Source: Candidatus Phycorickettsia trachydisci
GTDB taxonomy: Bacteria; Pseudomonadota; Alphaproteobacteria; Rickettsiales; Rickettsiaceae
Direction: 5' to 3'
NCBI GenBank assembly: GCA_945875085.1
Contig: CAMCJU010000001.1
Span: 1-25,633, forward strand
Length of the DNA: 25,633 nucleotides
Part shown: piece by piece, positions 3,853-8,794 of the stretch
How the letters are laid out: each line of letters starts with the position of its first letter
How positions within the stretch are numbered: position 1 is the stretch's first letter
Notes under the pieces: model-generated
Told to the model about the DNA's origin: nothing
Database searches by the model: none
The model's input: only the letters and a program-made list of their open reading frames with translations
Program-made: the position numbers and the translations under genes

Positions 3853-4896
3853 ATGTTTTCAAAAATAATTGAGCTGTTTTCCTCAGATATGGGAATTGAC
3901 CTTGGCACTGCAAATACTTTAGTTTATGTAAAAAATAAAGGCATAGTTCTAAACGAGCCTTCAGTGGTTGCCTTGATAAAGGATGCAAATGGCTATAAAC
4001 CCTACGCCTTTGGCCATGAAGCAAAAATGATGCTAGGCAGGACTCCTGCAGATATTGATGCCAAAAGACCTATGAAAGATGGGGTAATTGCTGATTTTAA
4101 AGGCGCAGAAGAAATGATTAAGCACTTTATAAGATCGGTGCATAAGAGGCGCAGCTTTGTTGGGCCGATGATTGTAATATGCGTGCCTTCCGGATCAACG
4201 CCAGTAGAGCGCAGGGCTATTCAAGAAGCGGCAGAAAGCGCAGGAGCTAGGGAGGTCTTCTTGATTGAAGAGCCAATGGCCGCAGCAATTGGCGCTGGCC
4301 TTCCAGTGACTGAGCCGACAGGATCAATGATAGTTGATATAGGTGGAGGCACTACTGAAGTAGCTGTGCTATCATTAGGAGGTATTGTTCATGCTCGTTC
4401 TGTGCGAATTGGCGGAGATAAGTTCGATGAGGCGATCATCTCATATATAAGGCGTAATTATAATTTGTTAATCGGTGAGGCGACTGCCGAGAGGGTCAAA
4501 AAAGAAATTGGTTCTGCGTATGTATTTTCTGATAAAGAGCATTATAAAACCGTTGAAATCAAGGGCAGAGATCTTGTCAATGGCATTCCTTTAGAAATTA
4601 AGTTGGACGAGAAAAGTATTGCTGAGAGCCTTACTGAGCCTATCAATCAGATAATTGAAACAGTTCGTACTGTTCTTGAGGTTGTCCCGCCAGAACTTTC
4701 ATCAGACATCGCAGATAAAGGAATTATGATAACTGGGGGAGGGGGTTTGTTGACTAATATCGATCAGGTGGTCAAGGATGCAACCAAGCTCCCGGTTTAT
4801 ATCGCAGATCAGCCTTTGTTTTGCGTTGTAAGGGGCATTGGCAAGGTGTTGGATAATTTTGCTAAATTTAGGTACGTGTTATTTAAACAAGATTAA
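3853..4896 (+). CDS. mreB: Rod shape-determining actin-like protein MreB
   Basis: [63 protein letters not shown]. Confidence 0.98.
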
Positions 4897-4899
4897 TTT

Positions 4900-5757
4900 A
4901 TGGCTTTATTTGATAATAGAATAAAAACTAGTCAAAGTGCTAGGTTGTATCAAAGAGCAATTAGTTTGCTGCAGAAAAACACGCTCCTTGGCTTGGTGGT
5001 TTTCTGGCTTATTGTTATAAAAACTCTAAACCCCAATACTTATAATAATGACTTGTTGCTGCAAGTCTCTGGTGGACTTTATAGTGTAACAAATAAAATA
5101 GCATTCTACTTGGATGGTGGCTTTAAAAGCATGGCGAAATATTTTGCATCAGCGCAAGCATTAGATAACGAAAACAAACTCTTGCGCCAAGAGATATCGC
5201 TTTTAAATGATAAATTAGTGGATTTTGAGTTGATACAGAAGTATGATTTAGAATTAAAGAGATTGCTGAATTTTGTATCTTTGCCAGAAGTTAATTATGT
5301 GTCGGCTAGACTGCTCTCGATAGTAAATTCTGCTCAAGGACCATATGGACTGATTAGTTGCGGTAAAGATAGCGGTATTGCTGTTGGAGATATGGTTGTT
5401 GCTGATAAGGGATTAATAGGAAAAATAGCCCAAGTAAGTGGTTCATTTGCTAAGGTCTTGTTAGTTACTAATTCCAAGTTTCGCACGCCAATAATAACAT
5501 CTTCAGGGCAAAAAGCTATTTTGGTAGGTGATCAATCGCAGCCATATATATTGTACTTAAAAAACATGGCAGAAGTAAAGATACAGGACTTAATTGTCAC
5601 CTTAGGTGATAAGGATAGCTTGCTTGTAGATATTCCCGTTGGAAAAGTTAGTAACATAGAAGATAAAGTTTATCTCAAGTTCATTAGCGATATAGATAAT
5701 GTTAATTTTGTTAGTGTATTAAAAATGAAAAAAGATGAGTCATATGATTCAAATTGA
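4900..5757 (+). CDS. mreC: Rod shape-determining protein MreC
   Basis: Directly downstream of mreB (3 bp gap). N-terminal TM, coiled coil (LDNENKLLRQE...LKRLLNF), G-x-x-x-GI-x-VG-x-x-V...GLIGKI motif of the MreC beta domain. Confidence 0.88.
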   Translation: MALFDNRIKTSQSARLYQRAISLLQKNTLLGLVVFWLIVIKTLNPNTYNNDLLLQVSGGLYSVTNKIAFYLDGGFKSMAKYFASAQALDNENKLLRQEISLLNDKLVDFELIQKYDLELKRLLNFVSLPEVNYVSARLLSIVNSAQGPYGLISCGKDSGIAVGDMVVADKGLIGKIAQVSGSFAKVLLVTNSKFRTPIITSSGQKAILVGDQSQPYILYLKNMAEVKIQDLIVTLGDKDSLLVDIPVGKVSNIEDKVYLKFISDIDNVNFVSVLKMKKDESYDSN

Positions 5758-7672: not shown

Positions 7673-8196
7673 ATTTAATTTTTCAATATCTATTTCCTAG
7701 TAATTCGCAAGCCAAAAGACAGATGGGTTTAATTAGTATTTTAATCCAGATATTACTGTCTATTTTGTTGTTGCTGTTTATGAGTTTGTCGACTTCTGCG
7801 TTTATATTTTTTAGTATGGCAATTATACCAACTATAATTTTCATGTTTTTAGATAGTAGAAAATCCTATAAATTTGAATTTGCTACCGTTAGCGCTTTTA
7901 ATTTATTGGGAATTTTGCCTTACTTAATAACAATGATTGCTAATTGGCGCGGTTTGGAAACTTACGCTGTTGTTTTTTTGCTAGAGCCTAAGACATGGCT
8001 TATCATATATGGCTCAAGCTTGATGGGGAAGTTGATTTATGTATTATTGCCTAAAGTAATTTCTGGCTATCAGGTGCGAAAATTTCATGAGCAAAAAATG
8101 AAATTGATCTTTGAGAAAAATGCACTCAGGAAGCTTTGGGGTATAGGGGCCTCAGATTTAAGCGCTAAAGAAACGCTAAATAAAAATGATACATAA
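7669..8196 (+). CDS. Uncharacterised multi-pass membrane protein
   Basis: 175 aa with several hydrophobic segments and a charged C-terminal helix ending LRKLWG. ATGA overlap with the kinase-like gene stop. Confidence 0.75.
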   Translation: MNLIFQYLFPSNSQAKRQMGLISILIQILLSILLLLFMSLSTSAFIFFSMAIIPTIIFMFLDSRKSYKFEFATVSAFNLLGILPYLITMIANWRGLETYAVVFLLEPKTWLIIYGSSLMGKLIYVLLPKVISGYQVRKFHEQKMKLIFEKNALRKLWGIGASDLSAKETLNKNDT

Positions 8197-8794
8197 TCAC
8201 TTAAATAACGCCATTGTCTCAACTAATAGTTATGTTTTCGACTTTCTCAAGGATAATATGCCTCAGGTTAGTTTTCAGTTACTTGAAGGGCAAGATCAAT
8301 TAGATGATTTTCTAAGCGCCAATCTTGCGATAAATATCTTAATTCTTGATGCGGTGCTAGATTTTTCATCTGCTATTATAAGGAGCAAAAACTCTATTAA
8401 TTTAACTGACATTCCAATCAAGGCAAGTCTTAAGTTAGAAAAACCTTTTGAGATATCAGCTCTGATTATTAATATAGGCCATTATGACCTTGATGATGGT
8501 ATATTTTGCTGCCTTAATGATTCATTACTTTACAGCCAAAAAGCCTCGCGAGTAATTAATACTAATGATGGGCAGATCGTTAGTCTTACGGCAAAAGAAA
8601 ATCAAATCATAGCGCAGTTGCTTTGTGCGAGAAATTTTACCTTGATCAAGAGCCAAATTATTGCTGAAATTTGGCCTAATTACAGCACCGCGCAATCAAC
8701 TTTAGAATTTCATTTACTAAACTTAAAGAACAAGCTCGATATAATTGAGGTATCAGATCATTATGTTAAGATATTATTTTTAAGGAATTCATAG
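8186..8794 (+). CDS. OmpR/PhoB-type winged-helix protein with degenerate receiver-like N-terminus
   Basis: C-terminal VSLTAKENQIIAQLL...IIAEIW...TLEFHLLNLKNKL matches the OmpR-type DNA-binding pattern. ILILD and KPF resemble receiver beta3 and beta5 motifs. Confidence 0.7.
   Translation: MIHNHLNNAIVSTNSYVFDFLKDNMPQVSFQLLEGQDQLDDFLSANLAINILILDAVLDFSSAIIRSKNSINLTDIPIKASLKLEKPFEISALIINIGHYDLDDGIFCCLNDSLLYSQKASRVINTNDGQIVSLTAKENQIIAQLLCARNFTLIKSQIIAEIWPNYSTAQSTLEFHLLNLKNKLDIIEVSDHYVKILFLRNS

Follow-up and report, generated by a model that had tools for sequence, protein, structure and literature searches.

A tail-anchored pseudokinase and its four-helix membrane partner behind mreBC in a lake-water Rickettsia relative: a probable composite operon

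In the lake-water Rickettsia relative Candidatus Phycorickettsia trachydisci, five open reading frames (ORFs) on the plus strand occupy positions 3853-8794 of contig CAMCJU010000001.1 (the window, that is, the whole analysed stretch of 25,633 nucleotides). They are mreB, mreC, the gene of a catalytically degenerate protein kinase (pseudokinase), a gene for a protein with four transmembrane (TM) helices, hereafter 4-TM, and a gene for a winged helix-turn-helix (wHTH) regulator. An earlier note on this DNA had proposed that the five form a single module coupling wall elongation or membrane state to transcription. Comparison with other Alphaproteobacteria establishes the identities of the genes, the loss of the catalytic residues, the conservation of the pseudokinase and the 4-TM protein as a pair and a history of their neighbourhood in three steps. 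The string is probably, with real room for doubt, a lineage-specific composite operon assembled from three units rather than one ancestral module.

The genes are tightly packed. Read directly, the junction between mreB and mreC is 3 nucleotides (nt) long. The mreC stop codon at 5755-5757 lies within the pseudokinase gene, whose ATG at 5735 gives an overlap of 23 nt (14 nt from an alternative ATG at 5744). The pseudokinase TGA and the start of the 4-TM gene at 7669 share the sequence ATGA, a 4-nt overlap, and the last 11 nt of the 4-TM gene are shared with the wHTH gene. ORF calls and direct reading thus agree exactly with the coordinates, co-orientation and four junctions given in the earlier note. 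The MreB match covers positions 2-324 of the 327 in the PF06723 profile, at 484.5 bits against a cut-off of 27. MreC has a short cytoplasmic N-terminus, one TM helix (hydrophobic residues ~28-40) and a periplasmic barrel core. Internal terminators, which the earlier note had raised as features that would divide the string, are not apparent: a sequence scan of 3600-9100 finds no terminator-like site on the plus strand. Promoter-like sites in the same scan number 28 against 20.3 (standard deviation 4.8) in shuffled sequence, not clearly above expectation, and the two near mreB (3731-3759 and 3822-3850) score 9/12 each, no better than chance. Sequencing runs that match 3700-9000 of the window are all DNA runs from lake and freshwater metagenomes, with no RNA run among them. 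Metagenome contigs with pseudokinases 46% and 64% identical to that of the window show the five-gene order again, including its overlaps of 4 nt and 11 nt, and have different downstream flanks, so the arrangement is conserved and is no chance feature of one contig. Joint transcription of the pseudokinase-partner cassette with mreC, and translational coupling between them, are probable. The features are collected in Table 1.

Table 1. Features of the five-gene string and its upstream flank (positions in the window; aa, amino acids)
Feature	Position	Strand	Evidence or remark
mnmE	2449-3768	-	upstream neighbour, divergent from mreB
mnmE/mreB divergent intergenic region	3769-3852	.	only sizeable gap upstream of the string; likely promoter region
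mreB, 347 aa	3853-4896	+	PF06723 484.5 bits; NF010539 523.6 bits
mreC, 285 aa	4900-5757	+	PF04085 79.1 bits, cut-off 28
tail-anchored pseudokinase, 645 aa, P0001	5735-7672	+	AlphaFold2 pLDDT 84.4; kinase fold Z 21.4
pseudokinase domain, residues ~10-276	5762-6562	+	structure comparison, residue alignment
pseudokinase C-terminal domain, residues ~286-582	6590-7480	+	conserved; no Pfam family
pseudokinase long terminal helix, residues 583-645	7481-7669	+	last ~20 residues hydrophobic (nt ~7610-7669), membrane anchor
4-TM partner, 175 aa, P0002	7669-8196	+	AlphaFold2 pLDDT 87.5; no Pfam family
orphan OmpR/PhoB-type winged-helix regulator, 202 aa, P0003	8186-8794	+	Trans_reg_C 25.2 bits; receiver shortened, degenerate

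The third gene encodes a protein with a kinase fold that sequence profiles barely detect. Its score against Pkinase (PF00069) is below threshold (20.9 bits, cut-off 31.7). An AlphaFold2 model built from an alignment of 21 sequences has a mean predicted local distance difference test (pLDDT) of 84.4 and a predicted template modelling score (pTM) of 0.79. Residues ~10-276 of this model form a protein-kinase fold, which VIA-align superposes on 10ju_A over 240 residues with Z 21.4 and a root-mean-square deviation of 2.9; some 50 further kinase chains match at Z of at least 17.9. The best Foldseek matches in the PDB are kinase domains of the PknB/Stk1 type, with E ~1e-7 to PknB.

The residues that transfer phosphate are missing. 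Equivalences were set by hidden Markov model alignment to MK2 and residues were counted over 61 family members. The lysine of strand beta3 (VAIK) occurs in none of the 61, the window protein having Ala51. The aspartate of the HRD motif occurs in one; the window protein reads Tyr-Gly-Asn at 143-145, with Asn145 in place of the aspartate. This position varies by lineage: other Rickettsiaceae have C/x-G-N and other Rickettsiales H-G-S/N, and outside the order it reads H-R-A or H-G-x, free-living relatives carrying His-Arg-Ala. The position of the DFG aspartate is filled by glutamate in 40/61 (Glu163 in the window protein) and by aspartate in 15/61. Other landmarks of the kinase fold persist, namely the catalytic-loop asparagine (55/61; Asn150) and the subdomain-IX aspartate (61/61; Asp197). 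Because the whole family is without the catalytic lysine and aspartate, the pair is expected to work by some means other than phosphotransfer.

Behind the kinase-like lobe the model shows a C-terminal domain of ~300 residues, mostly helical with two beta-hairpins. It is strongly conserved among members from across the class: Cys450 is present in 61/61, Asp482 in 59/61, and His484 and Glu438 in 57/61 each. Arg439, Tyr442 and Asp589 are near-invariant among the 61 sequences. The pattern as a whole, with its Asp482-x-His484, looks like one that would suit a metal or active site. A 439-aa protein in the AlphaFold database (AFDB) matches this domain alone. No enzyme family was matched by the domain in whole-model PDB searches, which were filled by kinases, the domain being neither folded nor searched by itself; a feature search of the atlas with residues 285-620 gave no usable match. 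The protein ends in a helix of ~60 residues, the last ~20 of which are hydrophobic in all members inspected. Together these features support a cytoplasm-facing, non-catalytic pseudokinase of the Hanks fold that is held at the inner membrane by its last helix. In two other genomes the gene is broken, into 609 + 83 aa in genome G007 (locus L019, 6487-8576) and into three pieces in G108 (contig 6, 132671-135044), through decay or assembly error. Genome G214 has three copies, two of them in tandem.

The partner encoded by the fourth gene is modelled with four membrane helices, the last of which runs on into a cytoplasmic helix with a conserved W-G motif at its end. The distribution of charges in the translation suggests that both ends of the protein are cytoplasmic. 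It has no match in Pfam or NCBIfam, and no Pfam family is found in any of 18 members. Look-alikes in AFDB and the ESM atlas are 143-198 aa long and unnamed or automatically misnamed, and a structure search returned generic helical-bundle matches only, at Z of 7.6 or less, within the tool's stated noise range. Complex prediction, proposed in the earlier note for the kinase-like and TM proteins among other pairings, passes weakly for these two: the score is 0.33 against 0.00 for the best control, three runs share at least 92% of contacts and the partner has a pLDDT of at least 71. In calibration the pass mark was reached by 58/80 solved complexes and 2/110 mismatched pairs, scores of 0.60 or less accounting for 7 of the 80 and for both passing mismatches. 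By this calibration, a weak pass misleads more often than not when the pairing was not likely beforehand; the prior from gene order is strong here. Taken together, physical binding of the two proteins is rather probable.

The place of the 4-TM gene behind mreC raises the question of whether it is simply mreD. Its size of 175 aa, its several TM helices and its position would fit a highly divergent MreD in an ordinary mreBCD operon into which a kinase-like gene had been inserted, an explanation that is nonetheless barely credible. PF04093 does not match the window protein at E <= 0.01 or any of 18 family members at E <= 1, and the identification was rejected. Relatives that have the 4-TM gene carry a separate MreD match elsewhere (contig 83 against 140 in G014, contig 59 against 39 in G005, 784 kb against 138 kb in G017). 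In G014 and G005 this match passes the Pfam cut-off; in G017 and others it is weaker. Where checked, this second gene stands beside pbp2 or rodA, as mreD-pbp2 on contig 83 of G014 and rodA-mreD-pbp2 on contig 59 of G005, and in other families the 4-TM gene accompanies the pseudokinase next to purA. In R. parkeri mreBC is likewise separate from mreD-pbp2 (PMC10295487).

The pseudokinase and its partner are an ancient two-gene cassette of the Alphaproteobacteria. A profile search against 1.84 billion cluster representatives (50% identity clusters) recovered 1095 full-length pseudokinase clusters at E <= 1e-30, and nearly all of the best 150 listed are 640-760 aa long. Among 201 alphaproteobacterial genomes, roughly one per family, 85 have a full-length homologue; these are spread over the class and mostly single-copy. 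The alignment holds over the full length for other Rickettsiales families and for 40 families of other orders (an architecture of ~680 aa), and ESM-atlas models match the pseudokinase at template modelling scores of 0.69-0.72 over ~580-600 residues. Forty loci outside Rickettsiaceae, each from a different family, show how the gene is usually placed. The partner gene lies directly 3′ and co-directional in 39 of them. Directly upstream and on the same strand is purA in 25, an order that other Rickettsiales families share (purA-pseudokinase-partner). The other recurrent neighbours are housekeeping genes as well: serA, a hisZ-like gene, rpoH and rluD. Neither mreB nor mreC lies within 5 kb at any of the 40 loci. 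With purA as the usual neighbour and no mre gene nearby, the cassette has no ancestral tie to the mre genes. MreC itself is matched in 187/201 genomes of the class sample, which makes its co-presence with the pseudokinase uninformative. In the literature, pseudokinase surveys included, no description of the family or of a kinase-like gene in the Rickettsia mre operon was found.

Within Rickettsiaceae the placement is different. Besides that of the window, 14 of 24 sampled genera have the pseudokinase; two were left out, one holding a short piece with stop codons and the other a locus at a contig edge. In all 12 readable genera the gene comes next after mreC, or after an ORF of mreC size, and in most of them it overlaps that ORF or starts no more than 50 nt beyond it. 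The distance to the partner is at most 17 nt in 11 of the 12, the exception being a split pseudokinase gene. In one genome (G010) mreC, pseudokinase and partner stay together though mreB is on another contig. A permease gene of the lptF/G type precedes mreB in many of these loci, and the genes after the partner vary by genus (miaA, cmk, a glycosyltransferase gene, a DsbA-like gene, lptG). No purA was found in any of 25 Rickettsiaceae genomes searched, against its presence in 12/16 other Rickettsiales families; the gene that used to precede the cassette was thus gone. The membrane-anchored, non-catalytic kinase fold with a multi-TM partner that the earlier note had seen after mreC is borne out by the fold (Z 21.4), the loss of the catalytic triad, the operon-like spacing and the recurrence in at least 12 Rickettsiaceae genera. 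The neighbourhood survey of homologues that it had called for finds the link to mreC or an mreC-sized ORF in 12 genera of this family and neither mreB nor mreC near any of the 40 loci outside it. A 611-aa and 156-aa pair after mreC in G002, considered as a diverged cassette, was rejected at an hhalign probability of 0.2%, the larger protein being an NtrY-type histidine kinase.

The genes lptF and lptG are normally adjacent. In Rickettsiaceae they are found separated by mreB-mreC with or without the cassette (locus L018 of G023, 3784-10506; locus L087 of G008, 431-4604), giving an envelope-gene supercluster lptF-mreBC-(pseudokinase-partner)-lptG-ubiD.

The fifth gene encodes what its sequence identifies as a winged-helix DNA-binding protein of the OmpR/PhoB type. 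The window protein falls just short of the Trans_reg_C cut-off (25.2 against 26.2 bits), its Rickettsiaceae homologues score 39.6-46.2 bits, and a search with the family profile finds DrrD (1kgs) at E 1.2e-13, the alignment running from the K-P-F of the receiver to the end, along with 52 further OmpR-family chains. The Pfam receiver (Response_reg) is matched neither in the window protein nor in these homologues. As read from the alignments, Asp55 is invariant within the N-terminal ~85 residues, Thr74 and Lys86 are conserved in most members, and the acidic pair is replaced by Ser12 and Asn14. The spacing along Asp55-Thr74-Lys86 is some 20 residues too short, which implies that receiver helices are missing.

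This gene came to the string separately. Full-length homologues lie at other places in seven other Rickettsiaceae genera, and in the three checked they follow SPFH-htrA-trhO (G023 and G008) or trhO (G016). Only in the clade of the window does the regulator gene follow the partner gene, and there the 11-nt overlap is the same. The members of this clade are metagenome relatives whose pseudokinases are 44-95% identical; inspection covered two of them, at 46% and 64%. The regulator gene of G023 lies ~13 kb downstream of its cassette, so that a local rearrangement would suffice to bring the two together. The window has an SPFH gene at 10255-11142 and an HtrA-type gene at 15361-16857, both downstream of the string; since SPFH-htrA-trhO directly precede the wHTH gene in other Rickettsiaceae, the wHTH gene of the window has moved relative to that block. 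In G017 a 378-aa ORF (locus L081, 3562-4698) joins a homologue of the regulator in frame to an N-terminal DPBB_1 domain (RlpA-like lytic transglycosylase), either as a fusion or as two adjacent genes read through by the ORF caller.

After the string the window continues with map, separated from the wHTH gene by 98 nt. The gap contains a promoter-like TTAGCA-17-TATAAT (10/12) at 8835-8863, and map may accordingly have its own promoter. Two short overlapping ORFs of 61 and 99 aa at 9672-10131 lie between map and the SPFH gene.

A composite origin would run as follows. The string would combine mreBC, a pseudokinase and 4-TM cassette that ancestrally stood behind purA, and an orphan regulator of the OmpR type whose receiver has decayed. 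The cassette would have been captured behind mreC in an ancestor of Rickettsiaceae, between lptF-mreBC and lptG, with purA lost and mreD-pbp2 set apart, and the regulator gene would have joined last, at the 3′ end of the cassette, in the clade of the window. The 4-TM protein most likely binds the pseudokinase, and the complex, placed at the cytoplasmic face of the inner membrane, could act through the kinase-like lobe and the large C-terminal domain as a non-phosphorylating membrane scaffold or switch. Operon fusion during genome reduction, which the earlier note had kept as its fallback, fits this history well, given the loss of purA and the splitting off of mreD-pbp2. The single five-gene module does not: the pair is usually linked to purA and at none of the 40 class-wide loci to mre genes, and the wHTH gene is attached only in one clade.

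Several observations weigh against the composite operon as a working unit of wall growth. Ten of the 24 Rickettsiaceae genera have mreB and mreC and no pseudokinase, even by profile. The order lptF-mreB-mreC-pseudokinase-partner-lptG-ubiD in G023 corresponds to lptF-mreB-mreC-lptG-ubiD in G008, a clean presence and absence at the same site. The pair is, by these two observations, dispensable for MreBC. Conversely, 5 of the 14 class genomes without an MreC match (E <= 1e-5) retain the pseudokinase, and one of these five is 99% complete; the same counts speak against the elongation-coupled module of the earlier note. The phyletic pattern is evidence against an obligatory link of the pair to wall growth. 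Co-transcription, though likely, is read from gene spacing, and the pass of the complex prediction lends the pairing weak support. The retained asparagine, the acidic DFG position and Cys450, Asp482 and His484 leave room for nucleotide binding or another enzymatic activity, so that a pure scaffold is less than certain. A role of the pair in wall growth directed by MreC or MreB, suggested by gene order, is doubtful. As to the placement behind mreC, a job in the elongasome is doubtful to unlikely as its cause and neutral hitch-hiking is a realistic one. It is unlikely that the pair is, throughout the class, a cytoplasmic-face accessory of the MreC/MreB elongasome that was drawn into the mreBC operon by joint production and assembly with MreC, its state being read by the degenerate regulator in the clade of the window. 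In Rickettsia, RodZ is without its periplasmic domain (PMC10295487).

The placement can also be explained without any connection to cell shape. The pair would have landed behind mreC after the loss of purA, been inherited there and used the mreB promoter, with the wHTH gene juxtaposed later by deletion or rearrangement. This is a serious alternative, somewhat short of probable. The absence of purA from all 25 Rickettsiaceae genomes agrees with it, as do the unrelated housekeeping neighbours elsewhere (serA, hisZ, purA, rpoH, rluD), the clean same-site loss that left mreBC in place in G008, the ten genera lacking the pair and the regulator gene of G023, which a local rearrangement could bring to the cassette across ~13 kb. 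However, the block survives in at least 12 genera with differing downstream genes, usually with junctions in the range of translational coupling, and the cassette stayed with mreC when mreB moved in G010. Such persistence exceeds what is expected of a neutral neighbour in rearranging genomes, though shared ancestry inflates the counts.

Persistence of this kind is also an argument for one elongasome signalling module of five genes, in which the pair would sense wall elongation or the state of the membrane and the wHTH protein would convert this into transcription. At each of the four junctions the genes overlap or stand 3 nt apart; order and overlaps persist to 46% pseudokinase identity as the flanks change; G010 keeps mreC-pseudokinase-partner although mreB has moved; and by alignment the wHTH protein retains Asp55, the presumed phospho-acceptor, and for the most part Thr74 and Lys86. 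Such a module is nevertheless improbable. In Rickettsiaceae with the mreBC-pseudokinase-partner block the wHTH gene is found elsewhere, after trhO; in 40 other alphaproteobacterial families the pair is linked to purA and never to mreBC; mreBC occurs without the pair in ten genera and the pair without an MreC match in five genomes; and a kinase activity able to drive a response regulator is not to be expected. Equally improbable is an atypical enzyme, with a kinase lobe that uses nucleotide (through Asn150 and Glu163) or an active C-terminal domain, the 4-TM protein serving as substrate channel or anchor. The catalytic-loop asparagine (55/61), an acidic residue at the DFG position (55/61), the conservation of Cys450 (61/61), Asp482 (59), His484 (57) and Glu438 (57) and the stand-alone C-terminal domain protein in AFDB are what it would predict. 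Set against them are the beta3 lysine, found in 0/61, the HRD aspartate, absent from 60/61, and the lack of an enzyme-family match for the C-terminal domain, which was not searched alone.

Some four in ten sampled alphaproteobacterial families keep the pair, which is unnamed; two of its three parts belong to no Pfam family. New here are its linkage to mre genes, its evolutionary history and the attachment of the regulator. The usual neighbours purA, rpoH and hisZ are uninformative about its function, and Rickettsiaceae provide the first context with functional content: a cell-shape operon flanked by lptF and lptG. This context raises the question of contact with MreC, MreB, RodZ or the wider envelope machinery, which can be tested in tractable free-living relatives and bears on the rewiring of wall growth in obligate intracellular relatives of Rickettsia. 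If hitch-hiking is the true explanation, the locus still illustrates clearly how operon capture can follow gene loss as a genome shrinks.

Among known systems, OmpR/PhoB regulators such as DrrD (PDB 1KGS) share with the fifth gene product the winged helix, the K-P-F end of the receiver and an aspartate at the phospho-acceptor position. In contrast to them, its receiver is not recognised by Pfam, the acidic magnesium pocket is replaced (Ser12, Asn14) and segments are too short; its neighbouring genes include none for a cognate histidine kinase.

PknB-type kinases regulate wall synthesis. The Hanks kinases of the PknB/Stk1 type (PDB 1MRU, 4EQM) have the same bilobal fold as the window pseudokinase (Z 18.9-19.4 over 240-250 residues) and likewise place a cytoplasmic kinase lobe ahead of a membrane anchor. 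Unlike them, the window family lacks the beta3 lysine, the HRD aspartate and an extracellular PASTA sensor. Its anchor is at the very C-terminus, behind a cytoplasmic domain of ~300 residues, and it has a dedicated 4-TM partner gene. The proteobacterial GLW pseudokinases carry Gly-Leu-Trp for HRD and poly-Leu for the beta3 lysine (bioRxiv 10.1101/2025.01.12.632604; PMC12599244). The window family does not have Gly-Leu-Trp, reading His-Arg-Ala, His-Gly-x or x-Gly-Asn instead, and its beta3 strand reads Phe-Ala-Leu-Val-Cys or Ala-Ile-Val-Phe rather than poly-Leu. All GLW members lack the DFG aspartate, whereas the window family has glutamate or aspartate there in 55/61. Membership in GLW was rejected on these defining motifs, the comparison being with the published motif descriptions and not a direct one of sequences.

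Two dead kinases with scaffolding roles come closer. The MviN/MurJ-linked pseudokinase of M. tuberculosis (ActPs3; PDB 3UQC) is a dead Hanks fold that serves as a scaffold in peptidoglycan synthesis and recruits a regulator (PMC12599244). It shares with the window family the dead Hanks fold on the cytoplasmic membrane face. It is, however, fused to the MurJ flippase, actinobacterial and marked by an activation-loop deletion, whereas the window family is tail-anchored; the two show no sequence relation beyond the fold, and the wall link of the window family is one of gene order only. EssB/YukC of the Firmicute type VIIb secretion system (PDB 6Z0F) is a single-pass protein with all catalytic motifs degraded that acts as an assembly scaffold (PMC12599244). 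Like the window protein it has a cytoplasmic, membrane-anchored pseudokinase domain. It differs in a substantial extracellular domain and in belonging to a secretion machine, no genes of which lie near the window locus; it is not among the 50 best PDB matches of the pseudokinase model and is compared beyond these by fold alone. The MviN pseudokinase and EssB/YukC are the closest working analogies for the window family.

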